Positions 37,352-54,256 of a DNA stretch of 64,000 bases are shown piece after piece. Numbering within the stretch: position 1 is the first letter of the stretch; each line of letters starts with the position of its first letter. The stretch is from an uncultured Chloroflexia bacterium. Its GTDB lineage: Bacteria > Chloroflexota > Anaerolineae > Anaerolineales > E44-bin32. A model generated the notes under the pieces. That model was given only the letters and a program-made list of their open reading frames with translations. It ran no database searches and was not told where the DNA came from. Location of the stretch: contig CAVUPD010000009.1 of NCBI GenBank assembly GCA_963743255.1, positions 310,862 to 374,861 of the forward strand. The letters run 5' to 3'. Both the position numbers and the translations under genes were made by a program.

Positions 37352-38011
37352 TCAATCCCCTGCCCAGGCAAACGCCTCAGTCGCTGTATGAGCCTCTCCG
37401 CGCGCTTCTCGGATTTCTTCGTCTGAGAGAGCCGGCGGGGTGATGCCCAGCATGCGACAGGACAGCAGTGTCCCCGCTGTCGCCTCGATCGTTTCGGAGA
37501 TCGCTGCGGCGTGCTCCAGGCTTTCAGCGGCGACAACCAGCCCATGGTTCTGCATCAGGATTGCCACCCCCGCGCCCAGGGCGGGGGCAACCGCCTCGGC
37601 CAGCGCCTCCGATCCGGGCATGAGGAAGGGCACCACGGGGAGCTCCCCGACCAGACGGGCCTCCAGCGAGATCGGAAGGAACGGCGTGCCAGTGAGCGCC
37701 ATCCGCGTCGCCTGCGGCGCGTGGCTGTGCACGATGGCCCGCACGTCCGTGCGCGTGCGGTAAATGGCGCAGTGGACGCGCCATTCGGTCGATGGGCTCG
37801 GCTCATCCATATTGCAGGCCTCGCCATCCAAGCCAATACAAGCCATGTGCTCCGGCTGCAGGCCGCCCTTGGACCTGCCGGCCGGCGTGATCCAGATCTG
37901 GTCGGGAGACCCGAGGTCGCGCGCGCTGACGTTGCCGCCGGTAGCGGTGATCAGCCCGCGGGCGTACAGCCCGGCGGTCACCCGCGCCAGCAGCCGGGCC
38001 GTCTCGCTCAC
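37352..38011 (-). CDS. Class II aldolase/adducin-family protein
   Basis: Intact 219-aa ORF with TATGGNVSAR and the His cluster AIVHSHAP. GTG start overlaps the upstream stop (GTGA). Confidence 0.8.
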   Translation of the reverse strand: MSETARLLARVTAGLYARGLITATGGNVSARDLGSPDQIWITPAGRSKGGLQPEHMACIGLDGEACNMDEPSPSTEWRVHCAIYRTRTDVRAIVHSHAPQATRMALTGTPFLPISLEARLVGELPVVPFLMPGSEALAEAVAPALGAGVAILMQNHGLVVAAESLEHAAAISETIEATAGTLLSCRMLGITPPALSDEEIREARGEAHTATEAFAWAGD

Positions 38012-38363: not shown

Positions 38364-38416
38364 GGGGACCTCCGATCAAGCGTGGACCGAGCCATGTCGC
38401 TCGGGGGGACTTGCCT

Positions 38417-38711
38417 GGGAAATGGCCTCCAGCCGGGCGGCCGACGGCTCTCCCTCACTCTACGCCCAGCCGGCAGGCAGGACAAGCATCGGGAGAATCC
38501 CGGCCCACCGGCCGAAGGTCCCCGGCATTCTTCCCGGGGGGTCAGCCGAGGGTCCTGGTGGTCTTACAGGATCGAAGGCCCCGCCGTTGGCCCCGCATCG
38601 TTGGCGGGGCCGCTCCTTGGCGGGGCGTCGTGGGCGGGGTGTCTTGGGCGGGGGCATCTTCCCATGCCGAAGGCTCTGGTGAGCTTCCAAGGCTACCGCG
38701 AGTTGTTGGGC
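38417..38711 (-). repeat. attC-like site 12 (terminal copy; distal R' core degenerate)
   Basis: + strand right end ..GGCTACCGCGAGTTGTTGGGC. The left end GGGAAATGGCCTCCAGC aligns with GCCCAACGGCCTCGAGC, but the 7-mer is lost. Confidence 0.5.
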
Positions 38712-38740
38712 GGATCAAGCGCGCAGCGCCGGGCTGGTGG

Positions 38741-39205
38741 TTATCTGTCTCTCAACTGAAGCAAGTGTCGGTATTGCCACTGTCGTTCTTTGGCTACGGC
38801 ATCATCGGCATGAGAGGGGCTGCTGGCCCTATGGACGGCCTGTACGGCATAGTTCGCAGCGCCGATGCAATGGGTGGGGACATGGGCAGTTGCCACCGCT
38901 TGACCTGCGGCCCGGGCCGCAGAGCGAGCGGCATTATCCTCTCCTACCTCGCGAGCAGCAGCATGAGATGCCAGCGAAGCCTTGCGTATCTCAGCCATCT
39001 TAAACACCCCGGTATTTATCCATGCCTGGAGTGCTTCGAGTGCATTCCGAGGGCGATGGTCTTCTGGATATTTTTCCTCAAAATAGGGCAGAACACGCTC
39101 AACACAATCAATGGCCCAGGCGCCCAGGGTCGTATGGTCGGTTCTTCCCGCAAGCGCGATCATCGACTCGTCTCTGCGTGTAACCGAGAATTCGGAGCTT
39201 GCCAT
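38741..39205 (-). CDS. Cassette 12: Imm5-like putative immunity protein (all-alpha)
   Basis: Intact 154-aa ORF. LGAWAIDCVERVLPYFEEKYPEDHRPRNALEALQAW.. and the Ala-rich helical repeats resemble the putative immunity protein family of polymorphic toxin systems (recognised from memory). Confidence 0.65.
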   Translation of the reverse strand: MASSEFSVTRRDESMIALAGRTDHTTLGAWAIDCVERVLPYFEEKYPEDHRPRNALEALQAWINTGVFKMAEIRKASLASHAAAREVGEDNAARSAARAAGQAVATAHVPTHCIGAANYAVQAVHRASSPSHADDAVAKERQWQYRHLLQLRDR

Positions 39206-39214
39206 GGGATCACC

Positions 39215-39255
39215 TTCTCACCGTCCGACGGATCAGGATCAGCGAGTTGTTGGGC
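39215..39255 (-). repeat. Orphan R''/L'' half of an attC-like site
   Basis: + strand ..GGATCAGGATCAGCGAGTTGTTGGGC matches the ORF-proximal arm only. The partner arm is missing, because the Imm5-like gene starts 10 nt away at 39205. Confidence 0.5.
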
Positions 39256-39419
39256 CGCACCCCCGCAACCGATCTGCAACCGGACTTACGATTGCCGGGA
39301 ACGCGTCTCCGTGATGTTCACGGCATTTAGCCATTGGGCCCAAGCGCACCCATACGCGTTCAAAGAGACGCATGGCGATCCGGTGCTTACAGAACCGGCG
39401 AGGCCGGTCAGATCCATGT

Positions 39420-40272
39420 TTAGGGCGGCGGCTTCTCGGTCTTCCGCCCCCGGACAAAGAGCGCACCCACCGGCGCGACCAGCATCAGGGCCGCCCCCAG
39501 GAGGGTCAACGCAAGGAAGATCTGGATCGCCTGATTCACGACGCCTGGCAGGACATCGACCGCCAGCTGCGTGCTAGCGCGTGATGAAGGTCTCTTCGCC
39601 ACCGGCAGCCGGGGGTTGGGCGGAATGCTCGAGCCAGCCGCGCGCTCCGCTCATCAGGACCAAGCCTGGAATCGCAGCCAGCAGAATGACACATCCAGGA
39701 CTGCCCAAACGCCCGAACCGATAGCTGAAGAGGGCAAGCAAGCCGAGGAGGAAAAGCGAGACTAGTCCCGAGATGGCAAGCGCCGCCCGAAGTTTGGCAT
39801 GTGTTTCGGCGCTGATGAAGCCCAGTGGGCCGATCCCCCCTTCCAGTTGTGATTGCATGCCGGGGTCGGTCATCAGGTTTGCCAGCCCATCCTCCCCGTC
39901 ATAGTAGATGGGCTCCGCCCACTGCTGGAAGAACCACAAGCGCACTTCTCTGGGGGTTTTCCCGGCGATATCCTCCGCCCGGACAACGATTCGCATCCCG
40001 GGGATGGGCTGCCATTCTCCGTTGGGCAACTCGGCGATTCTCTGCTTCACGATCCCAATGTCGCCGGCTTCATCCAACCCTCCCCCTTCGGCACTGTAGG
40101 AACTCGCCAGCGTCGTTGTCAAGAGGGCGATACCTTGCTCAGGGGTTGTGGCCAGAACCAGGATGAGCGCCAGAAAGGTGATGTTCAACACGAACAAGAG
40201 AAGAATGCCGGTGAGCCACTTCGCATCCACGTGCCAGTAGGGGCGGGGCTTGAGTTCCTTCTTTGTACCCAT
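39420..40272 (-). CDS. Cassette 11: hypothetical membrane protein; one frameshift near 39590
   Basis: ATG at 40272 follows GAGGAGG. TM helices are at the N-terminus, in the middle and at the C-terminus. ORF 39574..40521 joins ORF 39420..39602 (..EETFITR|ASTQLAVDVL..). Confidence 0.6.
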
Positions 40273-40298
40273 CGCTGGCCTCCTCGAACCGAGTGAAC

Positions 40299-40648
40299 AG
40301 CAACCCAGTGCCCTCGAGCTAGTAGGTCCCGCGTCAGGCCGCCGCGGGTCCCGCCGAAGGCCCCGCATTGTGGGTGGGGGTGATCTTCCAGGGCCGGAGC
40401 CCGCCGGAGGTCCCGCGTTCTCGGCGGGATTCGTCCCGGGGGTTCTTACCGGGATCCTGCCGATGGCCCCACGTTGTGGGCGGGGGTGATCTCCAGGGCC
40501 GGAGGCCGCCGGAGGTCCCACGTTACTGGCGGATTCGTCCGGGAGTGTGACCGGGTTCCTGCCGATGGACCCGCGTGTGTGGGCGGGGGTGATCTTCCAG
40601 GACCGGAGGTCCTGGTGATCGTCTCAGGACTTCAGCGAGTTGTCGGGC
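40299..40648 (-). repeat. attC-like site 10 (~350 nt) containing 2.5 tandem copies of a ~104-nt module
   Basis: Distal end ..CAGGACTTCAGCGAGTTGTCGGGC. The proximal end ..CAACCCAGTGCCCTCGAGCT is degenerate. Tandem units at 40359..40464, 40465..40566 and 40567..40648. Confidence 0.55.
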
Positions 40649-40665
40649 GCACGGGGCACCCGACG

Positions 40666-41403
40666 TCACAAGCCAAGCGTCTCCGCCGCCATTTGTTGAA
40701 GGTGCGCCGCATCTTCCTCGGTCACACCCGGGCCCAGATAGGGGTTGCCAACCGGCGTCCTCTGAAGGATCACCCCATAGAGTATGCAGGCTGCCAGGTA
40801 GGTGCCGGCTTCCGTTGGATGGCCATCTTGCGAGTATAGGGGCAGATCCGGCCTTTGAAGAAGGGAGCGGGCAAAGGCCAGGCCCGCTGGCGCCACCTCC
40901 GCAGCAAGCTGGGTACCGACCGCTTCGTACGCACTCGCCAGGGTTGCCGTCGTAACTCCCCCGGCGACACTATCGGGGCGTTCCCAGGTCATGAGAAGAA
41001 CCGTCTTGGCGCCGCTTTCGCGAATCTCGATGTCGAATTCGCGGCTGAACTTGTAGAAGCTCTGCCAGTCCGTAACTGGCCGCTGACTTTGCTCCTGCAA
41101 GACGACGAAGGTCCAGCCCTCCTCGCGGATCTTGCGGGCCGCCGCACCGTCTTTCCAGTGATCCTCAAGCGTGTAACCGCCCGCAGCGATCCGCGAAACC
41201 CGGCTGGAGGGCGCCAGACCCTTGAATTCCTTGTCGATCCCACCGTTGAGAAACGTGTAGCTGTTCCCAATGAAGAGGACCCGTGTTGGATCTGTCTCTT
41301 CAGAACCACTTCTCCCTAAGCCACCGCCCGTGCACACGGCTAGCAAGAGCAAGGTCGTGCAAGTCCACAGGATGATGCGCTGGAGTTGCCTAACAGTCAT
41401 CAT
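40666..41403 (-). CDS. Cassette 10: SGNH/GDSL-type hydrolase lipoprotein
   Basis: Intact ORF with signal/lipobox LLLLAVCTGG, block I FIGNSYT and block V DGHPT. Confidence 0.75.
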   Translation of the reverse strand: MMTVRQLQRIILWTCTTLLLLAVCTGGGLGRSGSEETDPTRVLFIGNSYTFLNGGIDKEFKGLAPSSRVSRIAAGGYTLEDHWKDGAAARKIREEGWTFVVLQEQSQRPVTDWQSFYKFSREFDIEIRESGAKTVLLMTWERPDSVAGGVTTATLASAYEAVGTQLAAEVAPAGLAFARSLLQRPDLPLYSQDGHPTEAGTYLAACILYGVILQRTPVGNPYLGPGVTEEDAAHLQQMAAETLGL

Positions 41404-41464
41404 CTTCAGAACTGCCACCCACAAAAGTGGAACCGAGCCAGTCAGCCGAAGGCATCGTGGAATA

Positions 41465-41771
41465 GCCCCACCGGCCTCGAGCTATCGAAGACCGTTCGTC
41501 CCGGATGGCTTCACCGGGATCCTGCGCACGTTGCAGGACAAGGTCCCGCGTTGCTACCGGGAAGCCGTCCGGCGGAGGCCGGCCTCCTAACTCTACGGCA
41601 TGCTGAAGGGCCAGACAAGGTCCAAGTTCGGCCCAGCCCGCCGGGGTAGCCGAAGGCCGCCGGAGATCCTGCCGTCGGCCGTTCGCCCCGATGTGCTTAC
41701 CGGGGTCCCGCGCACTGTGCGGGGCGTTCTGGGCGCATGTGCTCTTTGGCGAGATAAGCGAGTCGCTGGGC
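41465..41771 (-). repeat. attC-like site 9 (307 nt, both cores slightly degenerate)
   Basis: + strand GCCCCACCGGCCTCGAGCTATCGAAGACCG... ...GAGATAAGCGAGTCGCTGGGC. Confidence 0.55.
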
Positions 41772-41778
41772 GTCCCCC

Positions 41779-42192
41779 TTAGGTAAGTCGGTCCCCTGGA
41801 GAAAGGACCCAGGCACTCGCGTGACGGGTAAATCCGATGCGCGGATAGTAGTCTGTGGCTGCAGGGGCGGGAGAGCAGAATGATCGTGCACCTGGGGCCA
41901 AGCTGCTCCCTGGTGTTACGGATCAATTCGCGCCCAATCCCCCTCCCGTTGAACGCCCTGATCGACCGCTAGGTCAGACAGGTAGCAGCAATACGTGAAA
42001 TCGGTGACAGACCGGGCGACACCAACCAGACGGTCATTCTGCCAGGCGGTGACCACCAGATCGGCATGACGGAGCATTCCAGCAATGCAATCTGGATCGT
42101 CAACGGGCCTACGGTCGGCGAGCGAAGAACGACGGAGGACGTCTATGAACTGCTCAGGGGAAACGGTCTCCCCCGACCCTGTAGTCGGTCAT
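41779..42192 (-). CDS. Cassette 9: GNAT N-acetyltransferase; one frameshift near 41880
   Basis: ATG at 42192 follows GAGGAGGAG. The acetyl-CoA motif is VQREGIGRELI. The C-terminal [21 protein letters not shown].. is in the adjacent frame. Confidence 0.75.
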
Positions 42193-42211
42193 GGCTCCTC
42201 CTCATCGGTGC

Positions 42212-42546
42212 GCCTAACAGCCTCGAGCTTTCGAAGATCCTGCGATCGTTGCAGGACAATGTCACACGTTGTCTCAGGGAAGCAGCCGGGGGGAGCGGGC
42301 ATTCGCCCGCCAGAGTTGCAGCATGCACGCAGGGCCGAGCAAGGTGCCCCGAATCCACCCCCGTCGCGTCGGCCGTAGGCCCTGGTGGTCTTGCAGGATC
42401 GAAGACCGCCGAAGTCCCGCCGTAGGCCGTTCGCTCCGGATGTCCTTACCGGGGTCCCGCGTCGTTGGCGGGGCGTCTTGGGCAGGGGTGGCTTCCCAGG
42501 GGCGGATGCCCTGGGGATCGTCCAGGACTTCAGCGAATTGTTGGGC
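42212..42546 (-). repeat. attC-like site 8 (335 nt)
   Basis: + strand GCCTAACAGCCTCGAGCTTTCGAAGATCC... ...GGGATCGTCCAGGACTTCAGCGAATTGTTGGGC. The R' core lies 19 nt upstream (minus) of the cassette 9 start. Confidence 0.65.
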
Positions 42547-42582
42547 ACCCAGGTGCTTCATTGAGGTGTTGGGGAGCGCTGC

Positions 42583-43244
42583 CTAGCTTTGCTTGCCAGG
42601 TAGCATCTCTCTGAGGAAGCTGAGCGTGCGTTCCCACGCCAGAGTCGCCGCTTCCTGGTTGAATGCGTCCTACTCGGTCACGCTCGAAAAACCAGTGTCC
42701 TGTCCCTTTGTAGCGATAGAACGTGACCGGTCGGCCGGCTGCTCGCAAGGCGTCTTCCAGCGATTTCACGTCAGCTTCGCGACTCGAATTCGTCTGCCTC
42801 AGCAAAGTGGCCAAGGTATTCAGCCTTCGAAGGTCCATAGTCCTCGGGGTTGGTGCCATAGAAGACTACGACCGCGCGAATCCGATCCGGATCGGCCACC
42901 GAGAGATCAACCGCGTAGGAGGCTCCAAGGGAAAACCCAATGACTGCGAGCCCTTGGCCGCTCACGGAGACACTGTCCGTCAAGAAGCCGACTGCGTCAC
43001 CGATATCAGCCTTGGCTTGCTTACTGTCAAGTGTCTTGACCAGCCTCTTGGCATCCTCGATGGTGACAGCAACCTTGCCATGATACAGATCCGGGGCGAA
43101 CGCGACAAAACCATTCTTGGCCAGCTGAGCGCTGAAGGCCTTGATGGTTTCGTTGAGCCCCCACCAGGGGTGCAAGACGAGCACGCCAGGCCCAGTGCCA
43201 GAAGGCGGAACTGCGAGAAAGCCCTGCGGTTGAGGATGTCTCAT
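42583..43244 (-). CDS. Cassette 8: dienelactone hydrolase family protein; 2 frameshifts
   Basis: GVLVLHPWWGLN, the nucleophile GFSLGA and ..GTGHWFFE.. The tail AFNQEAATLAWERTLSFLREMLPGKQS is in a third frame. Confidence 0.7.
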
Positions 43245-43368
43245 ATGCACTCCTACCTGGGGTGAGTGTAACAGAGCCATCAGGAGACGGCTTTCCCCCG
43301 GTGCGTGACCTCGGAAGGGAGAAGTCTTGAATGTTGTGGTGATCGGGGCGGCGAGAGCACCCCTGGCC

Positions 43369-43670
43369 GCCCAACGGCACTGAGCTATCGAAGACCGTTC
43401 GTCCCGGATGTCTTCACCGGGATCCTGCGCTCGTTGCGGGACCACGTCCCAGGTTCCTTGTGGGAAGCTGTCCGGCGGAGGCGGGCGAGGCTACTTCCGC
43501 TCCAGCCACCGCCGGGGACCAAGGCAAGCCAGCCACCGATTCGGCGGGGTGGCCAAGTCAACTACTTGAAAACTCACCTTGGCGGGCGGCGAGCGACCAC
43601 CTCTCCGCCGCGCTCGCCCAGTCGGCCGGAGGTCCTGGTGATTTCCCAGGGCCTCGGCGAGTTGTTGGGC
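43369..43670 (-). repeat. attC-like site 7 (302 nt)
   Basis: + strand GCCCAACGGCACTGAGCTATCGAAGACCG... ...GGCCTCGGCGAGTTGTTGGGC. Confidence 0.6.
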
Positions 43671-43695
43671 GCCTGGCAAGGCACGTCCGAGACAA

Positions 43696-44250
43696 TCAGT
43701 TGAGCCGAAGGTACGCCTCTCCCCCGAAGAGCGCCTCGTACTTGAGCACGTAGTCGGCGGGCTCGCCCTCGACCTCGAAGATGAGGTATCCCGCCTTGGT
43801 GGCGCCACCGAAGAACTCACTTCCCTCGAACATCCCGGGGACTCCGGCAATCAGGAGGCGGGGATTGTGTGCGATGCCGGATGTGTCCACCAGGGAAAAC
43901 TCAAGCCCGCTGAGACGACAACTTGATTCGGGCGACAGGTTGCAGGAGGCGGCAATGCCAACAAGGATGTAATCCGCGGCGGGCTCGGGTGTGGGATTCC
44001 AGAGGCTACCGTCCCGGACGATGGCATCGGCTGGGAAGACCAGGTCCGTGATCGACAGCGACATGTCGTCGATCTGAACGGTATTGCCGAGCGGCGCGGG
44101 GTTGAACCGAGAAGCGCCGAGCGCGGGCAGAGTGGATTCGGCAGGCACCGCTCCGGCCCCTGAAGGCTGAGCCACGACGACTGGAGCAGTCCGTCCGCAT
44201 GCGAGAACTGATGCTCCGAGAGCGGCAATTGCAGTGGCGACTACCTTCAT
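43696..44250 (-). CDS. Cassette 7: lipoprotein, DUF4352-like (tentative)
   Basis: Intact 184-aa ORF with signal plus lipobox MKVVATAIAALGASVLAC and a beta-rich remainder. Confidence 0.7.
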   Translation of the reverse strand: MKVVATAIAALGASVLACGRTAPVVVAQPSGAGAVPAESTLPALGASRFNPAPLGNTVQIDDMSLSITDLVFPADAIVRDGSLWNPTPEPAADYILVGIAASCNLSPESSCRLSGLEFSLVDTSGIAHNPRLLIAGVPGMFEGSEFFGGATKAGYLIFEVEGEPADYVLKYEALFGGEAYLRLN

Positions 44251-44322
44251 AATGGACTCCTCGGCCGCCCTTCTTGGTGTCCCATCTTGTGGAGGGCGGT
44301 CGCAGTCAGCGACGATCCAGGC

Positions 44323-44422
44323 GCCCGACGGCTTCGAGCTATCGAAGACCGTTCGTCCCGGATGTCTTCACCGGGATCCTGCGCCGGTTGCAGGACATGG
44401 CCCCACATTGTTAGTGTTAGGC
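44323..44422 (-). repeat. attC-like site 6 (short variant made mostly of the inserted module)
   Basis: + strand GCCCGACGGCTTCGAGCTATCGAAGACCGTTCGTCCCGGATGTCTTCACCGGGATCCTGCGCCGGTTGCAGGAC..CACATTGTTAGTGTTAGGC. Confidence 0.5.
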
Positions 44423-44497
44423 CACCGGCCAACAGCACGGCGGCCAGGTGTTACCGTGTCCACACCGCCACAACCGAGACCTGTTGTTGCGTCCCTG

Positions 44498-44941
44498 TTA
44501 CGGATGTCCGAACTCCGGCTTTCGAGGCGCTCGGGGGCCGACGCCGGAGAGGTGCACATCCTGCCACTCCCCACGCGCCTGAAGCACTTCCGCCCGCTCC
44601 TGCGCGTCGTGCAGCTCTTCGATCATCCCGAGGTACTCGCCCGCGTCGGTCCAGATGGGCCGGATATACTCGTACAACATCCTTCCCCGGTAGTTGACCC
44701 AGCCTTCATAGTGGTCCAGGACTCCTGTCCGGATGTCCTCGATCAGCTTCTGCACGGCGGCGTCCGACTCATGCGGGTGGCAGCTGAAGACTGTGGACCC
44801 CAGGCGTTCGGAAGGCTCCACCTGGAGCATGAGTCCGGCGAGCCGATTGAATAAGACAATTCGATTGTCCTCGTCGATGAGGACCAGGCCGATGCACAAT
44901 TGATCGGCGACCGCCCTCAGCACCCCGGATGTTTCGAGCAT
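44498..44941 (-). CDS. Cassette 6: stand-alone PAS-domain protein
   Basis: MLETSGVLRAVADQLCIGLVLIDEDNRIVLFNRLAGLML.. is a typical PAS N-terminal pattern. The 3' end may run into repeat sequence. Confidence 0.6.
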   Translation of the reverse strand: MLETSGVLRAVADQLCIGLVLIDEDNRIVLFNRLAGLMLQVEPSERLGSTVFSCHPHESDAAVQKLIEDIRTGVLDHYEGWVNYRGRMLYEYIRPIWTDAGEYLGMIEELHDAQERAEVLQARGEWQDVHLSGVGPRAPRKPEFGHP

Positions 44942-45068
44942 CAATGGCCTCGCTTTTCACCGCGCCAATAGTCCCTACTGTAGCTCAGCGCCGCGCTTAG
45001 CGCCTCTGCTGCCAGTAGATCAGCCGGCTACGTCGGGCTGTTCTCGGCGAGGCGAGTAGCCCTCGGCG

Positions 45069-45436
45069 GCCCAACGGCCTCAAGCAGTCGAAGACCGTTC
45101 GTCCCGGATGTCTTCACCGGGATCCTGCGCTTGTTGCAGGACAAGGTCCCACGTTGTTAGTGGGAAGCTGCCCGGCGGAAGCGGGCAGGCTCTCTCCAAC
45201 TCTACGCCGGGCCACAAGGCAGAGCAAGCATCCGCTAAGGCCAAGCCCACCGGCCGAAGGTCCCCGGCGTTCTTCCCGGGGGGTCAGTCGAAGATCCTGG
45301 TGACTTTCCAGGGTCGGAGGCCGCCGGAGGTCCCGTTCTTGGCGGGATTCGCCCCGGGAGTCTTTACCGGGATCCTGCTGAAGGCCCCGCGCAGTAGGCG
45401 GGGGTGATCGTCCAGGACTTCAGCGATTCGTCAGGC
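45069..45436 (-). repeat. attC-like site 5 (368 nt, with inserted hairpin modules)
   Basis: + strand GCCCAACGGCCTCAAGCAGTCGAAGACCG... ...GGGGTGATCGTCCAGGACTTCAGCGATTCGTCAGGC. It ends 8 nt from the cassette 5 stop codon. Confidence 0.6.
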
Positions 45437-45443
45437 CGCTGCC

Positions 45444-46080
45444 CTAACCCCGCACGTACCTGAGATGGGTGGCGGCGGGAGTATCGAGAGTGCTGTGGAT
45501 CCGAAAGCCCGGTACAGGTTCGCGAAGGTTTTCGAACAGGCGTCTCCCGCCGGCGAACAGGATCGGCACCAAGGATACCTCAAGCTCGTCGATGACACCG
45601 AGGTTCAGGTATTGCTGGATCACGTCCGCGCCACCCGCAATGCGAATGTCTTTGCCGGCCGCGGATTGCCTGGCCTGAGCGAGCGCTATCTCCGGGCCAC
45701 CGTTGACGAAGTGGAAAGTGGTCCCGCCAGGACGGACCCAGGCTTCACGCCTCTCGTGTGTGAGCACGTATACGGGAGTGTGAAACGGTGCTTCCTCCGG
45801 CCAACCACGCTCGCCACCCTCGAACATGCGCTTGCCCATAATGCTGGCACCGATGCGCTCCGTAGTGCGCCGAAGCATGTCGTTCACCGGGCCGGTCTCT
45901 CCTCCGGGGCCGAGCTTGAGGTTCTTGCGGAAGTATTCCTGGTTGAGATCCAACCCATCAGCGCGCCCCACTTAGCGCCCCAATCTTTGTATTCGGGGCT
46001 ATCCCAATGCTCCAAGGTCATCCCTTCCGGTGCCATGTACCCATCAAGGCTAAGCCGATGTTTACAAAGATCTTGCTCAC
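45444..46080 (-). CDS. Cassette 5: dihydrofolate-reductase-family (RibD C-terminal domain) protein; about 2 frameshifts
   Basis: VSKIFVNIGL / SLDGYMAPEG N-terminus (GTG at 46080 after GGAGAGGAGA). ..DIRIAGGADVIQQYLNLGVIDELEVSLVPILFAGG.. in ORF 45444..45971. Confidence 0.7.
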
Positions 46081-46106
46081 TATTCTTGTCTCCTCTCCTC
46101 ACAGCT

Positions 46107-46284
46107 GCCTAACGGCCTCGAGCAGTCGAAGATCCTGCGCCTGTTGCAGGACGAATTCCCGCCGAAGGATGGCGGGGAGTATCGGGCGGGTGGATACTAC
46201 AAGCAGCTGCACGGAGTCGCCGTGCTGCTGGTCTCGTGTTCAACCTCGGTAACCGACTCTGCACTGTCAACCGCGAGTAACGCC
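46107..46284 (-). repeat. attC-like site 4 (R' arm conserved, R'' arm degenerate)
   Basis: + strand starts GCCTAACGGCCTCGAGCAGTCGAAGATCCTGCGC. The distal end ..CAACCGCGAGTAACGCC only loosely matches ..CAGCGAGTTGTTAGGC. Confidence 0.5.
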
Positions 46285-46298
46285 TGACGCTTATCCCG

Positions 46299-47114
46299 TC
46301 ACCACACGAATGCTACGCCGCGCTTGCCCAGGATGTAGTCGTCAAACACCACCTTGCCGGCTTGTCCGCCATACCGAGACACACGTGCAGCGGCAGCAAG
46401 TGCTCCTCGCGGGGGTGACAGTAGCGTGCGGAGGGCGCCTTCTCCCATTCGATCAGGCGCTGATCCCGTTCGGCCTGGGGCATGGGCCCGACGCAGGTCT
46501 CGATCAGCCAGTCCTGAAAGGCGTCATTGGCCGGATCGGGCACATTGAACCCTTGCCAGGCGAAGGCCCGCAGGTTGTGGAACGAGAACCCGGATCCGAT
46601 CACCAGGATGTTCTCCTGCATCAGCTCACTCAGCGCTTTGCCAAGGGCAAGATGCGCGCCAGGGTCAAGGCCGCGCAACGAGCGAGAGTTGAAGCGAGGG
46701 AATGTCGGCTTCGAGGGTACATCAGCTTCAGCGGGATGAACAGACCATGATCGAATCCGCGCTGAGGATCGATCCGAGCCGAAATGCCGCTCTTGCGCCA
46801 ACAATGCGGCGATTCTGTCTGCAAGCTCGGGGCTGCCGGGCGCCGGGTAGGTAATGTCGTACGCTTCCTCGGGGAAACCGTAGTAGTCATAGAACATCGG
46901 AGGGCTGTATGCACCCAACAGGGTTGCCGCGTCTTTCTTCCCAATGGGCGCTGATGACCAGGATGGCTTCCGGCCTTCTGAGTTGCGATGGAAGCCCCAA
47001 CATGAAGTCGACCATCGCTTGATGGCTTACGTCCCCGAGGATGGGCAAGGGACCGCCGCCATGCGAGAGATAGACGACCTGGGCCCCTTCCTCCGTGCTG
47101 GTTTCTTTCGTCAC
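46299..47114 (-). CDS. Cassette 4: class III extradiol dioxygenase (LigB / 4,5-DOPA-dioxygenase-like); about 3 frameshifts
   Basis: VVYLSHGGGPLPILGD, ILVISAHWE, YDYYGFP, ILVIGSGFSFHN, CHPREEHLLPLHV over ORFs 46887..47114, 46630..46944 and 46313..46918. Tail ..GKVVFDDYILGKRGVAFVW is in another frame. Confidence 0.7.
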
Positions 47115-47176
47115 TGACCCAACCTCCGTTAAGTCTCTCCCCCCGCCCTGGCGTGTGGTGACACGCCGGTGCTCCC

Positions 47177-47261
47177 GCCGAAGAGCCTCGAGATTGGCAG
47201 TCCCGCTTTAGCTCCGCCGAAGACCGTCGTATCTGTCCAGCGCTTCAGTTAGTAGTTCGGC
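47177..47261 (-). repeat. Degenerate attC-like site 3
   Basis: + strand GCCGAAGAGCCTCGAGA ... GCGCTTCAGTTAGTAGTTCGGC aligns with the conserved arms, but the core 7-mers are mutated. Confidence 0.4.
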
Positions 47262-47345
47262 CGTTCTCGTTCTGCGCGATTGCCGCGGGGCCGTAAAGGA
47301 CCAGCATTCGGCCTGGAAGGGCAACCACCGTGGATTGCAGCTGGG

Positions 47346-48517
47346 TTATCTGTAATAAACCGCAGAGAAGCAGCCGAAATTCGGCGGGATGTTGGACACG
47401 CATTGGTCGGACACGGCGAGGAGCACCCGTGCGTTTCCCCTCCCTAGAATCACACACTCCAGGTCCTGGCAGACATCATACGAAGTCTCCCCGCCCACCT
47501 GCAAGACCGTCCAGTCGTTCGTCGGTCCCGGCTTCCGATAGAACTCCAAGAATCCATCCTTGCTCACGCTGGAGGGCATGAAGTAGTCATAGAAGTCGTA
47601 GTCTGTCCCGACATTGGCGTGGTAGATCGCGTGCAGCCGGGAACCCGCGGGAAGGGGCAAGCCGAGATCCAGCTCCACGTGGAGCGCCAGATAATCGGCG
47701 GGCAGCTTGATTTCCTTCAACTGGTTGATCGAGGACAACTCCTCATTGATCTCCTGCACTCCGGAGATGTAGGTCCCGCCGCCGCCAGGAGAATAGACAT
47801 TCCCGGTCAGCCGGATGTGGAAACGAAGCAGATAGTTGCCGTCTTGCGCCAGGATGATATCGCCCTGCGCCTGGTCGATTTTGAAGGTGCCCGATGGATC
47901 GGATTGCTCGTCGAGATCCGTTTCGTCGAACGTAAAGTGATTGGCCGGAATGCCCTCGAAATCCACCTGATCGATGAATTGGGCGCCCAAGACGGAATAC
48001 TTCGGATAGCCCTCCCGCATATCCGCCGCACGCAGAAAGTAAGAGTTCTAAATTGCTGGGATCAGGTTCGAGCGAGACGAGCCAGAAGTCCTGATTGTAG
48101 TTTTTCTCGTAGAGCACGCCGTCGATCAAGTACTCGTCGGGCCGATGTCCATACTGAGATTTTTACCAGGTGATATGCACCCAAGGGGTCCTTGATGAAA
48201 CCAATGCTGTCACCGGTCTCGATGACTTCCCCGCCGCCGGTGGTCCTATTTACCCTGGTCAGAATGAAGCTGTCCAGCTGGCGGTTGTCTCCGAGCGCGG
48301 CAGCGTCGAAGACGGGTTGCCCAGGCGTCGACGTCGGCGTAGCGGTTGCGGATGGTGCCGGAAGGGGCGTGCCTGATGGCGCCGCCGTCCGTGTAGCCGT
48401 TGCAGCCGGGGGCGAAAGAAGGGCTTCCGTCGGCGTGGCTGCGACTGTGCCCGAACTACTGCACCCTGCCAATAGCATGCTGGCCGAGAGAGACAGGCCG
48501 ACCAGGGTCTTGATCAT
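47346..48517 (-). CDS. Cassette 3: hypothetical lipoprotein; about 2 frameshifts
   Basis: MIKTLVGLSLSASMLLAGCSSS lipobox (ORF 48062..48517), continuing through ORFs 47743..48129 and 47346..48020. No family recognised. Confidence 0.6.
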
Positions 48518-48586
48518 CTCATGCCCTCCATAAGTACTCTAGGTTTGCCGGTCGAGACGGCTTCCACCCTCGCCGGCGGAGGCGTG

Positions 48587-48743
48587 GCCCAACGGCCTCG
48601 AGCTATCGAAGATCCCGCGGTTGTGGCGGGAAGCTGCCCGGCGGAAGCGGGCAGATTTACCAGGATTGTGCGCCCTGCAGGCGGGCCGAGCAAGCTGCAA
48701 TCAAGGCCCAGCCCGACGGGTCAGCTTCAGCGAGTTGTTAGGC
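48587..48743 (-). repeat. attC-like site 2 (157 nt)
   Basis: + strand GCCCAACGGCCTCGAGCT ... GGGTCAGCTTCAGCGAGTTGTTAGGC. Same core as site 1, plus a 26-nt hairpin inserted in the R' arm. Confidence 0.7.
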
Positions 48744-48760
48744 CGCCCACCAGTCACGAC

Positions 48761-50418
48761 TTACTCGGCGTGGAAACGACAATGCGTCGCGTGTTCTGTT
48801 GTGGCGATCCATATGTCTTCTGGTGAGGCGATCGCGACTGCTTCCACGGGATCGCTGTTGGTGACTGCAGGAGGCAACAACGGCAAGCCGTCGCGGCTGT
48901 CGTAGATCCTCCAAGTCGAAGGTTGATCCGCAGGCAGCCATGGCAAGAAGTGATACAGAACAGGGACATAGGCTTCGGCCGCTACCCAAACGGACCCATC
49001 GGCCGCAAGGGCAAGTCCTCTGGCGCCGTCGGTGAACGCGCCGGCTGTGGACTCCAGATCGTAGATGGTCAAGTCTCCGGAAGAAGGTTGATAGCGGGCG
49101 AGGCCGTCGTATCCGGCCATCCAAAGCGTTCCGTCAGGTGCGAAGACCAATTGATCAGCGGATTCGAACGGGGGGCCGCCCGCGAAGCGAAGGGACTCTG
49201 GAGATGACTGGTCAATGCGGACTACATTGCCGAGGAAGGGAGCCACCCATGGAGTGCCGTCAGGGGAGACGGCCACCGCGCTGATGATGTCGGAGGATGG
49301 GAGTGATGCCCAGGATCGGGTTCGGGGATTGAAACGTGACACGCCTCCGTACGTGGCAAACCACACCTCACCGCTTGGGGCGACGGCGATGTCGTACACG
49401 CTATCATTGACCAATCCGCCGGCGGAGGATACGGAAAACCATGTCTCGCCGTCAAACTTCGAGGCTCCGCCTTCAGTGGCGAACCAGACTTCGCCAGAGG
49501 GCAAGGGTACAATTCGGCGGACTTGGTCGTTGATGAGGCCGTTCGAGGTCCGAATGGGTAGCCATTCCGTTTGGCCGGGCCGGAGCAAGCGGAGCCCATC
49601 ATTGAAGGTCGATACCCAGACTGAGCCGTCCGATGCGACTGCGATATCCGTGATGTCGTAGCGGTTGGCGCTCCCTAGCCGGCAAGGATTCGCATACCGG
49701 GGAAGGAGGACGCGGTGTGATGGTAGGGATGGTGGGTAGTTGTTGGAATCCGAAGGCGAAGGTGTTGCCGGAGGAGCGGACGCCCACCGTCGGCAGCGAC
49801 GGGAAAGTAGCCTGGTAGCCTGCAGGCGTGTCAGGACGGATCTCGAATACCTCGTCCGGGCAGCCCGGCAGCCAGACGTGGAGAGAGGATTCGCCTCTCC
49901 AGTCCGAAGGGTAGCCATTGCCTCCCCCGTTCACGCGGAACGCGTGATCTCCAGGGAGAGGTGGCTCCCCGTCGTCCCGGGTGCCGTTGGCGTTCTGGTC
50001 GACCCAAGCTACTCCTGTGGCGCTCCAGACGCAATCGGGCGGGAACCCCCCGGTGATCGCCGCGATTGGCATCCCGCCATAGCGGATCTGGAACACGAGG
50101 ATCCGGACAAGCCAGGCAGCCAGACAGAGCAGAGGAACCGCAAGGGGCAAGAACCACCAGCGAAAGCGGTGGCGAGGTCCTGGAACAGCCTGTCCGGTGC
50201 ATGCCTGTGTGGTCGGAGGCTGAGAGACATATGCATTGCCAAGGCTCGCCTGGCCGCGTCCGCGACAAGGGGGTCTTCGTCGCGTAGTGCAGGCCTCCAG
50301 GGCTACCTTTGCCTCGGCAGAGATGCGAGGTGCAACGACGCAGCTCCTCACACGCGTCATAGCGAGCCGCCTGACGACCGCTCCTTATCTTCTTGAGCAA
50401 CTTACTCTCGTCGGGCAC
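48761..50418 (-). CDS. Cassette 2: TM-anchored beta-propeller repeat protein (two-component-regulator-propeller-like); about 2-3 frameshifts; start uncertain
   Basis: Repeats ..DIAVASDGSVWVST.., ..SGEVWFATEGG.., ..SGEVWFATYGG.., ..DGTLWMAGYDG.. in ORF 48761..49918. N-terminal helical and TM parts are in ORFs 49599..50360 and 49831..50496. Confidence 0.65.
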
Positions 50419-50453
50419 GGCAATTCCTACTTGCGGGTATCCTGGCCAGGGCG

Positions 50454-50584
50454 GCCTAACGGGCCTCGAGCTAAGCTGCCCGGCGGAAGCGGGCAACTCT
50501 CCCCCACTCTACGCCCGGCCGGCAGGCGCTTCAAGCATCCCTGAATGCCCTGCCCGCCGGGTCAGCTTCAGCGAGTTGTTAGGC
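50454..50584 (-). repeat. attC-like site 1 (131 nt, best-preserved copy)
   Basis: Minus strand GCCTAAC-AACTC-GCTGAAGCTGACCCGGCGG ... CCGCCGGGCAGCTTAGC-TCGAGGCCC-GTTAGGC. Pairing is 7-bp R box, asymmetric spacer, then 3+6+8 bp stems interrupted by two single-base bulges on one arm. Confidence 0.75.
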
Positions 50585-51148
50585 ATCGGCCTTAACGAGC
50601 GCACGCTGCCGCGGATAATGAGCGGATAGACAACTGACCATACGAGCGAGAATATGATGGCTGCGAAGGTGGCCTTCTCCGCCGCGTCCGCCCAGGGGGA
50701 GACTTGCTCCACGGCCTTCTTCCTAGAGGCGACCTCCTTGTCAGTGTCGTCCACGTCAAGTATGGAAAGCGTCTCGGCAATTGTTGGGTGGGATGAAGCC
50801 GTTGCGAGGAAGGCTCTGATGGCATGCTGCTTCATGATGTAGTAGACGGTGTCTTTGGCAGTGACGTCTCCCAGGAGCCAGTGAGCCACCAGGCCGAGGA
50901 CGGCCGCGATGACCCCATGGAAGGACAAGGAGGAAGAGAAAGATCCCGTCGAATCTGCGTCTGGCGACGGCCTCAGCCAGATCCCGGATATTGAGAAGAG
51001 CGAAACCGGAGATTGCTACAAACCAGACCAGTCGTGTAGCTGTTCCCTTGTTGATCTCGGCAAATACACCGAAATCGCGGGAGAGTCCGTCGGCGAACTC
51101 CCTGATCGTTGCGTGTGCGTAGTCGGTCGTGTTGCGCGGCTGAGCCAT
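50509..51148 (-). CDS. Cassette 1: hypothetical membrane protein (about 4 TM); one frameshift near 50930
   Basis: MAQPRNTTDY.. (ORF 50756..51214) joins SFHGVIAAVLGLVAHW.. (ORF 50509..50928). The tail PNNSLKLT.. is a translation of the attC, so the true stop may be earlier. Confidence 0.55.
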
Positions 51149-51291
51149 TGTGACCCTCTTGTGACTGATGGAGCGCAGGAACGCGCGTTGTGAACCCAGG
51201 CCGATGCCTAACATGCAATTCTACATCTCCTCCCCCCAGCTCCCCCGCCGATGCGGTATCATCAACCCAGCCCGCCCCCCCGGAGGACGAT

Positions 51292-52635
51292 GTGCCCAAG
51301 ACCGAGAAGCCCGCCGACGAGATCGCCCGCATCCTCGAATCGGCCCGGCGCCTGGGCGTCGAGCTCAACGAGGACGAGGCGCTGCAGTGGCTGACAGCTA
51401 TGGCCGCCGGACCCGGCGGCGGGGACGTGGTCGTCGACATGCGCGCCGGGGTGTTCGGCCACCGGGTCACGATGCTCGACTTCTCCCCCGAGGAGCTGGC
51501 CTACTTCCGCCGCGTCGGCCAACTGGTCGAGTTCCAGGACGAGCCGGGCGTGGTCGAAACCGCCCTGGCGCTCTCCGGCTCGGCCGCCCAATCGAAGATC
51601 CAGTCCTACCCGGGCGACTGCGACTTTTTCGAGCGGGTCAACATCCGCACGGCCACGCGCCCCGAATGCATCGCCATCCTCTCGCGGTTGATCCGCGACA
51701 AAGCCCTCCAGACAGAGAAGGGCGCCACGCACCAGTTGATCGAGGTCAAATTCGGCTCGTTCCCGGCCGGGGTCGTCCGCGCCGGCCAGACGCTCAAACC
51801 CGGCAGCCCCATCAGTTGGACCCCGGCCGAGATCCGGGCCGGTAAGATCGAGCTCCAATCGTCCGACGGCGCGCCGCTCACGATCAACTGGGACCAGGCG
51901 GCGCAAGATCCAGGATGGACCAAACTCGACTGGGTGGTCGCCGACCCGCTGCGTGGACAGCTTTCCAACGCCACCAACATGCTCGACGTCACCTGGGAGG
52001 CTCCCGATGGAACGATCACGCCGCTCGACGGGTACCTCGATCCGTACTTCCAGGAGGTGTACCTCGAAGCCGGGTCGATCCCGATCTTCTCCAAGCTGGC
52101 CAAGCACGTCTCGGCCGACGCGCTCGATGAATACGTCGCCCAGCTGCAGAAAGAGGTCCACAAGTACCTGGGCAAGGACCTGAATTACGGCAAGGCCGCC
52201 AAGCGCATGTACAACATCTTCCGCCTCACCGGGCGCTACGAGGAGGCGGCCTTCATCCGCGAACTGTTCGACGAGCCGGCCACCGTCCTGTATCAGGTGT
52301 GGTCGCTGATCCGCACGCTCGACGACACGCTCGTCCCCGGCTCGAGCATCCCGCTCGAGGCGATCCAGCGCCAGGCCGACGTGCTGATCGCCGAGGTCCG
52401 CGACGTTCTCGAGGGGACGCAGGAGATCGAGATCGTCCGCCGGCTTGAGCGGCTGCGCGATACGCTCGGCGACGAAGCCGGCCGGCTGGCCTGGACGACG
52501 CAGGCCGAAGCCGCCCGCGGCGAGGTGATCAACCTGGTCAACAACTTCTTCCACAGCAAGCTGACCGGCCATCCGGCCATCCGCGTGTACATCGACGAAC
52601 AGCAGCATCCCTGGAGGGCGCGATGGGCGGACTGA
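51292..52635 (+). CDS. Pol-beta-fold nucleotidyltransferase, cGAS/OAS/CD-NTase-like active-site pattern (tentative)
   Basis: Intact ORF with LSGSAAQSKIQSYPGDCDFFERV (G[GS]..DxD), later KLDWVVAD, and a long helical C-terminal half. GTG at 51292 follows GGAGGA. The ORF is open from 51190. Confidence 0.6.
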   Translation: MPKTEKPADEIARILESARRLGVELNEDEALQWLTAMAAGPGGGDVVVDMRAGVFGHRVTMLDFSPEELAYFRRVGQLVEFQDEPGVVETALALSGSAAQSKIQSYPGDCDFFERVNIRTATRPECIAILSRLIRDKALQTEKGATHQLIEVKFGSFPAGVVRAGQTLKPGSPISWTPAEIRAGKIELQSSDGAPLTINWDQAAQDPGWTKLDWVVADPLRGQLSNATNMLDVTWEAPDGTITPLDGYLDPYFQEVYLEAGSIPIFSKLAKHVSADALDEYVAQLQKEVHKYLGKDLNYGKAAKRMYNIFRLTGRYEEAAFIRELFDEPATVLYQVWSLIRTLDDTLVPGSSIPLEAIQRQADVLIAEVRDVLEGTQEIEIVRRLERLRDTLGDEAGRLAWTTQAEAARGEVINLVNNFFHSKLTGHPAIRVYIDEQQHPWRARWAD

Positions 52636-53303
52636 TCGAACAGGCGGGCGGCCGCAGCCCGGAGCGGGCACTGAACCGGGCGCGAGAGGTGTGGGCGGAG
52701 AGCATGCTCCGCCCAATCGACGAGCTCGGGCAGGCGCTGCGCCAGCGCGAACCGATGGGCATCGCTCTGCGCGCCGGCTGCACGTTCGACGGTCACACGC
52801 TGCTGCTCGATTACTGGGGACAGCCGGTGCGCCTGACGTGGCCCGAACTGGCCGCCGAGCGCGTGGCGGACGGTAAGCCGTGCTCGACCTTCGACCAGGC
52901 GATGCTGCTCTACTACTTGGACTGCGCCGACGGCGCGCCGCTGGCTGACCAATGGATCGGATACCGCGAGCTGCCCGACGGCGCCTTCTACCACCAGGCC
53001 TATCAGGGCTACAGCGGCAACCGGCTTGCGCAGGCATTCGGCACTCGGCCGGAGGCCTTCGCACCCGCTGCGCTGGCACTGGGTGGCGAGCCGATCACCG
53101 GCCTGGGCACGACGGCCTTCGCCTTCCAACCGCTGCCGCGCATCCGCCTGGCAGCCGTGCTATGGCCGGGCGACGACGAGTTCGCCGCGCGCGGGGCGGT
53201 GCTATTCGACGCCGCCTCCAGCCATTACATGACGACTGACGGGCTGGCGCTGCTCGGCGGCGGGCTGGCCGGCCGGCTGGCACGCCCGGTGCCCGCGGGC
53301 TGA
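52623..53303 (+). CDS. DUF3786-like protein (tentative)
   Basis: Intact 226-aa ORF. Its start overlaps the upstream stop by 13 nt. The family call is from memory of the pattern ..LLLDYWGQPV..LLYYL..G.WIGYRELPDG.FY... Confidence 0.5.
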   Translation: MGGLIEQAGGRSPERALNRAREVWAESMLRPIDELGQALRQREPMGIALRAGCTFDGHTLLLDYWGQPVRLTWPELAAERVADGKPCSTFDQAMLLYYLDCADGAPLADQWIGYRELPDGAFYHQAYQGYSGNRLAQAFGTRPEAFAPAALALGGEPITGLGTTAFAFQPLPRIRLAAVLWPGDDEFAARGAVLFDAASSHYMTTDGLALLGGGLAGRLARPVPAG

Positions 53304-53337
53304 CCACCCTGATCAATTCCCCCGGGGAGACATCGAA

Positions 53338-54256
53338 TTGATTCAACCGCCGCGCTCGATCCTGGCCCAGGTCTTCGTCTCTCCCGATGAGCGCCGGCTG
53401 CGCGCCGGTTGGCGGCTCGTGCTGCAGTCGATCGTGCTGCTGATCCTGCTGACGCTGGTATCGATCGCCGTCCTGATCATCTCGTTCGTCCTCAGGCTGG
53501 ACCTCAACCTCCTGCAACCACTGGCGCTCGTCAATCTGCTCCCCACGACCATCGCCATGACGTTGTCGGTTTGGATCGCACGGCGGCTGTTCGACCGGCG
53601 CTCGTTCGTCTCGCTCGGGCTCCAACTCGATCCCCTCGCCCTGCCCGATGTGGTAGTCGGCTTCCTGATCGCCGGCGTGATGATGGGCGTGATCTATGCC
53701 ATCGAGGCCGCCGCCGGTTGGCTGCGTTTCGATGGTTGGGCTTGGCAAACGCTCCCGGCCGGCACGGTCGCCCTCGGGCTGTTTTCCGGACTGGTGGCCT
53801 TCACACTGGTTGGGTTTCAGGAGGAGCTGCTCCACCGCGGGTACATCCTGCAGAACGTGCGCGACGGGATGGACCTGCGCTGGGGGCTGTTGCTCTCGTC
53901 CGGCATCTTCGCCCTGATGCATCTGGGGAACCCGAATGCTACCTGGTACTCCATCCTCCCCGGGCTGACCGCCGCCGGGTTCTTTCTTGCCTTCGGGTGG
54001 GTGCGCACGCGCCAGCTGTGGCTGCCGATCGGTGTGCACATCGGGTGGAACTTCTTCGAAGGCATCGTCTTTGGCTTTCCGGTTAGCGGGATCGACGTCG
54101 TCGGGTCTGGTTCGCCAGACGCCAACCGGCCCGACCTACCTGACCGGCGGCCCGTTTGGCCCCGAGGCCGGCCTGCTCCTGGTGCCCGCCCTGGCAGTCG
54201 GCATCGGCCTGATCTGGCTCCACACACGGAGGCGCCTCGCCTCTTCGGCCGGCTGA
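53338..54256 (+). CDS. CPBP (CAAX/Abi) family intramembrane glutamic endopeptidase; one frameshift near 54100
   Basis: FQEELLHRGY (EExxxR), IFALMHLGN (FxxxH), IGVHIGWNF. Multiple TM helices. TTG start at 53338. The tail is in ORF 53987..54256. Confidence 0.75.

Follow-up and report, generated by a model that had tools for sequence, protein, structure and literature searches.

The locus considered here lies at positions 51292–54256 of a 64,000-nt stretch of contig CAVUPD010000009.1 (the whole stretch is called the window below). It raises the question whether three consecutive genes, encoding a putative nucleotidyltransferase (gene A), a protein of the DUF3786 family (gene B) and an intramembrane protease of the CPBP type (gene C), belong together as a nucleotide-signalling defence module at the border of a mobile element, as had been proposed in an earlier note on this DNA. 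The three open reading frames were found in place, all on the plus strand (Table 1), and the proposal was partly supported: the identities of the three genes and the idea of a nucleotide-processing enzyme hold, while a defence module of three genes was not supported. The steady partner of A is an exonuclease of the Cap18 type, and not the adjacent DUF3786 or protease genes.

Conserved exonuclease partner of gene A

Loci were gathered around relatives of A (83) and around relatives of B (80), of which 74 (comparable A loci) and 70, respectively, entered the counts. Clustering of all open reading frames in the flanks revealed one near-constant gene, coding for a protein of approximately 190 amino acids and standing immediately upstream of A in the same orientation. 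It adjoined A in 60 of the 73 loci with enough upstream sequence (82%), with a median distance of 76 nt between its last aligned residue and the start of A, and it was still adjacent in a relative with 40% identity to A, where the two genes overlapped by 4 nt. In the window the exonuclease gene is situated 14.5 kb upstream of A, and in L001, which like L004 is a relative of the window (90 and 93.5% nucleotide identity, respectively), the distance is 7.9 kb.

The encoded protein matched the PADLOC model PDLC00753 ('Effector/Exonuclease') with E = 7.6e-62 and 206 bits, and its sole sequence match in the PDB was Cap18 (7T2S; E = 5.4e-41), with approximately 50% identity over the full length and with the DEDDh motifs VDVE, FN..FDW and H....D present in the alignment. 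RNase T, oligoribonuclease and the epsilon subunit of Pol III were not retrieved in the same PDB sequence search. The closest homologues on plasmids (46–50% identity) were located within operons of cyclic oligonucleotide-based antiphage signalling systems (CBASS), either of type II, with the gene order nucleotidyltransferase–ThiF–MPN–exonuclease, or of type III. The Anaerolineae exonuclease gene is followed by A, with no gene for a CD-NTase (cGAS/DncV-like nucleotidyltransferase), and does not stand in a CBASS operon. To our knowledge, Cap18-type exonucleases have so far been described solely as accessory enzymes of CBASS cyclases; here such an enzyme accompanies, throughout a bacterial class, a different nucleotidyltransferase family that lacks a curated model, and is its near-constant partner in the operon. 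In the 2026 version of a preprint, members of this exonuclease clade were reported to be inactive on ordinary DNA and RNA and to cleave selectively 2'-5' oligoadenylate and the linear, 2'-5'-linked intermediate made by bacterial cGAS, which reportedly sets the threshold of activation (bioRxiv 10.1101/2025.03.04.641389).

Sequence and fold of the putative nucleotidyltransferase

The product of gene A is very probably a nucleotidyltransferase of the Pol-beta fold whose C-terminal domain is helical. Its homologues have a length of about 440 amino acids and share the start residues MP(E/K)T..., and the Pol-beta signature recognised earlier, a GS pair followed by DxD, turned out to be strongly conserved: G96, S97, D109 and D111 were invariant among 20 close relatives, and in an alignment of 24 sequences with identity down to 30% S97, D109 and D111 remained invariant and G96 nearly so. 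Further invariant stretches among the 20 close relatives included TALALSGSAAQSKIQ.YPGD.D.FER.NI, NASNMLD.TWE, PLDGYLDPYFQ, NYGK..KR.YN and RELFDEP. In the AlphaFold model, with a confidence score (predicted local distance difference test, pLDDT) of 76.5, a beta-rich nucleotidyltransferase core precedes a helical half, and the motif, LSGS-x11-DCDFF, is placed on strand 88–95, helix 98–104 and strand 109–119; the long helical C-terminal half expected by the earlier note was thus borne out by the model and by the Foldseek matches described below.

A third acidic residue had been suspected in the segment KLDWVVAD, but D213 of this segment was replaced by G or N in four distant relatives and D218 also varied in the 24-sequence alignment. 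In the same alignment D232 was nearly invariant and D246 invariant, and the third carboxylate would more plausibly be one of these two than D213 or D218. In the helical C-terminal domain K301, R305, Y307, N308 and R311 were invariant or nearly so. Residues 1–62 (51292–51477) were modelled with pLDDT below 50 and yet were highly conserved (LGVE.DE.EALQWL, GVFGHR.TMLDF); this N-terminal segment of about 60 residues may serve in binding of a partner. Neither a signal peptide nor a membrane segment was present in A of the window, and no RNA-binding domain was detected in it by a Pfam scan. The gene is intact and its product looks catalytically competent, presumably acting as a nucleotidyltransferase.

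With A as the query, both as a single sequence and as a profile, Pfam, NCBIfam, PADLOC, PHROGs and the PDB sequences yielded only noise. There was no match to the Pfam domains NTP_transf_2 or OAS1_C, and phmmer and a profile search of the PDB sequences did not retrieve 4amq or 4xul. These two structures, of a 'new nucleotidyl transferase' from Megaviridae, were, together with 4ams, the top matches when the model of A was compared with the PDB by Foldseek (E approximately 5e-6, probability 1.0, template modelling (TM) score 0.42–0.60); the PDB title of 4xul describes a complex with GTP. A Foldseek search of the predicted viral structures in BFVD gave 16 matches with E ≤ 1e-3, one of which, from Pithovirus, was annotated as a nucleotidyl transferase. 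The best matches in this set were virophage and giant-virus proteins, including Zamilon V6BPH6 (E = 1.6e-14), and the top three had TM scores of 0.51–0.59. The structural alignments from the PDB and BFVD spanned approximately 400–460 columns at 8–16% identity. A literature search on Mg662 of Megavirus chilensis (the protein of 4amq, 4ams and 4xul), on its PDB codes and on Anaerolineae in combination with CBASS found no relevant description.

Weaker matches in the PDB included the tRNA-processing enzyme 3wfp (E = 0.0085), TENT5B (E = 0.016), OAS1 (E = 0.035) and the CD-NTase ClCdnE (E = 0.11), the former two ranking above the latter two. PADLOC, applied to A and four distant relatives, gave no match to a CD-NTase model, and alignment of the A family profile by hhalign with two annotated CD-NTases from CBASS plasmids resulted in a probability of 0.2%, in a comparison whose sensitivity was limited by one side being a single sequence. 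With the invariant motif and the fold matches, the assignment of A to the Pol-beta-fold nucleotidyltransferases is therefore well supported, while the likeness to cGAS, OAS and CD-NTases claimed earlier is not, since no cGAS/OAS-specific signature was singled out by Pfam, PADLOC, Foldseek or hhalign.

Distribution and inheritance of gene A

More than 5900 homologues of A with a length of about 440 amino acids and 67–92% identity were found in Anaerolineae and Ardenticatenales-type assemblies; among the 120 matches listed, they were named hypothetical and carried no precomputed Pfam domain. An exhaustive HMMER search of representatives clustered at 50% identity yielded 577 A clusters, and relatives were present in at least 500 species-level genomes, almost all labelled as Chloroflexota or Anaerolineae and including the cultured Levilinea saccharolytica. 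Since the identity of A across Anaerolineae was 62–69% and the clades of its neighbour-joining tree matched the synteny groups, the gene looks vertically inherited. No relatives of A were found in the plasmid and phage collections. Judged from these comparisons, A is a chromosomal gene of Anaerolineae that evolves slowly, and it does not look like a part of a mobile defence island. The deep branches of the tree were short and not resolved, and independent gains of DUF3786 are therefore not claimed.

A few relatives deviated from the common pattern. Two contigs with a typical Anaerolineae-type A (L033 and L052) were labelled as a Methanosarcinales archaeon (coverage 0.3) and as Armatimonadetes, respectively, and were probably mis-binned. 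In protein P0168 a PQQ_2 propeller is fused to the A domain, while P0229 is a eukaryote-like protein of 1291 amino acids combining matches to AbfB, F-box-associated, C-type lectin and PLAT models with A, the last two matches being below the threshold in Pfam. The N-termini of P0195 and P0225 resemble signal peptides.

Functional interpretation

In our best reading, to which we give about an even chance, A and the exonuclease represent a vertically inherited, chromosomal pair of a synthase and a hydrolase of a nucleotide product, and not a three-gene mobile defence module. In such a pair, A would condense nucleoside triphosphates, and the short product or linear intermediate thus formed, in which a 2'-5' bond is plausible, would be hydrolysed by the exonuclease, serving as a threshold or for recycling, as was reported for Cap18/Exo with bacterial cGAS. 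The DUF3786 protein would be a lineage-restricted downstream neighbour, possibly with an accessory function, and the CPBP protease an occasional neighbour of DUF3786, frameshifted in the window. Thirteen loci of another Anaerolineae clade carry the gene of a 2H phosphoesterase (PF13563, 2'-5' RNA ligase superfamily) downstream of A, which would fit the same 2'-5' chemistry. The nucleotide-signalling idea of the earlier note thus gains partial support from the Cap18-type partner, while the defence module with a CPBP effector remains unsupported. The pair is a testable lead to a new nucleotide-product pathway.

Several observations weigh against a synthase/hydrolase pair. No effector or receptor sensing nucleotides (SAVED, STING, patatin or 2TM type) was recognised, B and C had no match in PADLOC, and the similarity of A to OAS1 and CD-NTases was weak in Foldseek and null in hhalign with two CD-NTases. 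No exonuclease was present within 8 kb in 12 of the 73 A loci, among them those of an entire clade (L002, L005, L009, L010 and others) whose A is just as well conserved, and much of the adjacency of the two genes could be synteny inherited within one class. In earlier work cited by a review, Cap18 is characterised as a general exonuclease degrading single-stranded DNA and RNA in the 3'-5' direction, which would equally fit a role at RNA ends. Finally, distant relatives of A occur in envelope-flavoured contexts, with genes of a PrsW protease, a trypsin-like protease, a PQQ propeller and an SLH protein.

The rival which survives best, possible but in our view unlikely, is maintenance of RNA 3'-ends, whereby A would tail or repair RNA independently of a template, the exonuclease would trim it and, in some clades, the 2H phosphoesterase would heal the 2',3'-cyclic phosphate ends. 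The three enzymes would then serve RNA processing as a housekeeping function. The higher ranks of 3wfp and TENT5B relative to OAS1 and the CD-NTase in the Foldseek search of A point in this direction, as do the slow evolution and vertical inheritance of a chromosomal gene, the 2H phosphoesterase neighbours and the activity on single-stranded RNA and DNA ascribed to Cap18 in the same review. However, the exonuclease belongs specifically to the Cap18 clade, as its sole PDB match indicates, and this clade was reported inactive on ordinary nucleic acids; furthermore, the Pfam scan detected no RNA-binding domain in A, and an Rfam scan of the 35–56 kb region of the window found no RNA family and hence no structured RNA gene there.

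A more far-reaching form of the synthase/hydrolase reading, which is speculative and to be regarded as rather unlikely as a whole, makes the exonuclease and A the core of a class-wide second-messenger system, probably with a 2'-5'-linked messenger, which would be related to CBASS-like signalling either as a domesticated form or as an ancestral one. In that case A would be a synthase unrelated in sequence to CD-NTases and OAS and having the fold of Mg662 and the virophage proteins, and the Cap18-type 2'-5' phosphodiesterase would provide a built-in threshold. The output arms would be DUF3786 with or without CPBP, the 2H phosphoesterase and, in other phyla, the PrsW/PQQ proteins.

It is improbable that A nucleotidylates an envelope-linked protein or small molecule (by AMPylation, UMPylation or sugar/lipid phosphotransfer) and that its adjacency to the exonuclease is incidental synteny. 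This explanation draws on the envelope-flavoured neighbourhoods of the distant relatives, as in L171/L172 (CP003382.1, GCA_000317835.1), a genome which we take to be Deinococcus peraridilitoris. There, a relative with 43% identity to A is part of a co-directional cluster with the order PrsW protease, 198-aa protein, trypsin-like protease, A, 962-aa PQQ beta-propeller protein (overlapping A by 4 nt) and 596-aa protein, with neither an exonuclease nor a DUF3786 gene in the cluster. The fusion of PQQ_2 with A in P0168, the signal-peptide-like N-termini of P0195 and P0225 and the nearby CPBP gene in the clade of the window are in line with it. On the other hand, A of the window lacks both a signal peptide and a membrane segment, and an adjacency of 82%, with the genes overlapping at 40% identity, is hard to call incidental. 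In addition, the helical C-terminal domain with its conserved basic and aromatic residues (K301, R305, Y307, N308 and R311) resembles, in our own reading and with no tool result behind it, the domains binding nucleoside triphosphates or RNA in enzymes of the poly(A) polymerase/OAS type.

Linkage of A with the DUF3786 and CPBP genes

Gene B was located directly downstream of A in 24 of the 74 A loci, with A ending at the first bases of B or a little ahead of them (offsets from -9 to +48 nt), and it was absent from two thirds of them. The complete order A–B–C, with a C-like CPBP gene not more than 1 kb after B, was present in only 5 of the 74, and in 5 further A loci such a gene was 2–7 kb away. 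Seen from the side of B, A was directly upstream in 46 of the 70 loci, while the remaining 24 had no A. A C-like CPBP gene started within 400 nt after B in 14 of 48 loci, and B–C pairs were also present in loci lacking A. The three genes are, therefore, largely not neighbours in other genomes, which speaks against the module put forward in the earlier note. The A–B linkage is real but lineage-restricted, the B–C linkage is looser and the A–B–C triple is rare.

The adjacency of A and B was kept across several differing flanking contexts. The B loci lacking A (among them L099, L110, L122, L128, L132, L147–L149, L156 and L164) retained their chromosomal setting, either AIM24 followed by B or NadE–B–glycyl-tRNA synthetase, and since A and the exonuclease were missing there together between the same flanks, the pair behaves as a two-gene insertion/deletion unit. 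In other Anaerolineae clades the gene downstream of A encoded a YdcZ-type membrane protein, a 465-aa protein or a convergent glycyl-tRNA synthetase.

In the loci with the 2H phosphoesterase (L021, L044, L048, L054, L062, L066, L067, L072, L074, L078–L080 and L083) the next genes encoded a DUF1232 membrane protein and then a small protein whose match to DUF4864 was weak and below the threshold; the window has no 2H gene.

An anti-phage nucleotide-signalling module of A, DUF3786 and CPBP at a mobile-element border, with the protease or the DUF3786 protein as the effector, could be argued from the A–B adjacency surviving different flanks, from the counts of A upstream and CPBP downstream of B, from the defence-system family of the partner exonuclease and, as a weak hint, from the recurrence of CPBP/PrsW-type proteases near A relatives in three lineages (PrsW-type membrane proteases near distant relatives in two lineages other than that of the window), but it is highly improbable in view of the rarity of the triple, the lack of B in most A loci, the persistence of B and B–C without A, the absence of any PADLOC model match for A, B and C and of plasmid or phage copies of A, the high conservation and clade-wise synteny with housekeeping neighbours downstream, including ribosomal protein genes, the frameshift in C of the window and the secondary insertion of the cassette array.

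Organisation of the window and the cassette array

The features of the window are compiled in Table 1. Its G + C content is approximately 66%, and the genes downstream of A–B–C are of the usual chromosomal kind (SLT, DUF1508, GNAT, DinB, a two-component system and the ribosomal proteins L12, L10, L1 and L11). A scan for promoters and terminators found nothing exceeding chance.

Table 1. Positions of the genes and other features of the window discussed in the text.
Feature	Positions	Strand	Description
Cap18-type DEDDh exonuclease gene	36170–36748	+	192 amino acids; tblastn, open reading frame, PADLOC and PDB sequence match
Aldolase gene	37352–38011		Between the exonuclease gene and the array
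attC-like cassette array, variable region	38404–51200	not applicable	Repeat families D1–D14, synteny break, lower G + C content
Gene A leader	51201–51291	+	Conserved, 90 nt; GGAGGA 4 nt before GTG; right-hand edge of conserved synteny (blastn)
Gene A	51292 (GTG)–52635	+	448 codons; uncharacterised Pol-beta-fold nucleotidyltransferase family; nucleotidyltransferase core and helical C-terminal half
Nucleotidyltransferase signature LSGSAAQSKIQSYPGDCDFFERV	51571–51639	+	G96-S97, 11 residues, then D109-x-D111
Gene B	52623–53303	+	226 amino acids; DUF3786, Pfam PF12654, E = 2.4e-42
Gene C	53338–54256	+	CPBP/Rce1-like intramembrane protease, Pfam PF02517, E = 4.9e-17; frame interrupted at about 54106

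The region of 38.4–51.2 kb contains many dispersed repeats of 50–130 nt with GCCTAAC...GTTAGGC cores typical of attC sites, and has a lower G + C content than its flanks (59–64% vs. 65–69%). In blastn alignments the window ceases to be collinear with L001 and L004 at about 38404 and becomes so again at 51201–51206, approximately 90 nt before A. The attC-like repeats extend to about 50592; the cassettes adjoining A differ between the window and L004. These two breaks in synteny (38404 and 51201) identify the array as an insertion between the exonuclease gene and A, leaving A–B–C outside. On the basis of these alignments, the array was inserted in the lineage of the window into the exonuclease–A intergenic region and has split an older operon. 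The array is of the integron type, but it may represent an attC cluster lacking an integrase.

The closeness of the genes to the cassette array noticed earlier is therefore genuine, with the array region ending about 90 nt before A, but it reflects a later insertion next to A–B–C. It gives no ground for counting A as part of a mobile element; having landed inside an older operon, the array makes the adjoining genes neither mobile nor defensive. The possibility that A–B–C are part of the cassette array was rejected, since from 51201 onwards the window is collinear with both L004 and L001. Also rejected was the equivalence of the minus-strand open reading frames at 50509–51214, just upstream of A, to the gene of 261 amino acids which precedes A in L001, because tblastn gave no match in any locus. 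Inside the array, on the minus strand at 46313–47114, two overlapping open reading frames of 201 and 75 amino acids look like halves of one extradiol-dioxygenase-like gene, and this may be another frameshift.

Genes B and C in the window

The assignment of B to DUF3786 was confirmed with 144.9 bits, compared with a cut-off of 27, over positions 4–175 of the 176 in the profile. Its AlphaFold model (pLDDT 79.7) had no significant match in the PDB by Foldseek (best E = 0.19); weak resemblances to the IclR ligand domain and to Bet v 1/START-like proteins were set aside as not interpretable. A literature search on DUF3786 found no relevant description. The 13-nt overlap of A and B, from which translational coupling had been suggested, is present but peculiar to the window. 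It exists because the stop codon of A is mutated here: the TGA of the relatives reads TGG, with 2 extra bases just after it (52610–52635), and A gains 8 residues.

Gene C starts 34 nt after B and was confirmed as a CPBP protease with 62.4 bits (PF02517 cut-off 22.4) and the motifs EELLHR, FALMH and HIGWN, corresponding to EExxxR, FxxxH and HxxxN; matches to myxosortase-type NCBIfam models were far below the cut-offs. No single frame, however, extends to 54256. In a DNA alignment with L004 and L001 an insertion of 1 nt was located at about 54106, so that the uncorrected open reading frame runs to 54360 in a wrong frame, while the proper C-terminus (LVRQTPTGP...SSAG) is regained from 54107 and ends at 54256. 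The insertion lies after the catalytic motifs, affecting the last 49 residues and removing the last predicted helix from the frame; the intact homologue in L001 has 305 amino acids. Either a true inactivation of the gene or an error of sequencing or assembly may lie behind the frameshift.

Comparison with known systems

Among the three genes of the initial proposal, B and C can be compared with families only: B matches the DUF3786 profile (PF12654) nearly in full, while C shares the Pfam match and the catalytic motifs with the CPBP/Rce1-like (Abi) proteases and has no visible link to CAAX processing, bacteriocin immunity or a sortase-like system. Gene A and its exonuclease partner most closely recall CBASS of types II and III, in which a CD-NTase gene and a gene of a Cap18-family DEDDh exonuclease (Cap18/Exo) are likewise combined in one operon, the exonuclease of the window being about 50% identical to Cap18 of E. 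coli upec-117 (7T2S). In contrast to the cyclase of CBASS, A resembles CD-NTases neither in sequence nor by profile, and no Cap2/Cap3, HORMA/TRIP13 or recognised effector is present here. Furthermore, CBASS is sporadic, whereas the exonuclease–A pair is chromosomal, slowly evolving and class-wide, and in the window physically split.

OAS1 resembles A in combining a Pol-beta nucleotidyltransferase core with a helical domain, and the system of OAS1 with 2'-5' phosphodiesterases resembles it in that the partners of A likewise come from families degrading 2'-5' bonds (the Cap18/Exo clade and, in one clade, the 2H phosphoesterase). The match itself, however, is weak (1px5, E = 0.035, probability 0.25, TM score 0.17–0.20), A contains no OAS Pfam domains, and no RNase L-like effector accompanies it. 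The fold which A has in common over nearly its whole length is that of Mg662 of Megavirus chilensis (4amq, 4ams and 4xul), Zamilon V6BPH6 and the Pithovirus protein. These nucleotidyltransferases differ from A in sequence, with 8–16% identity and no sequence-level match, and in belonging to viruses of eukaryotes and not to bacterial hosts, and the exonuclease–A pair offers a biochemical handle on them.

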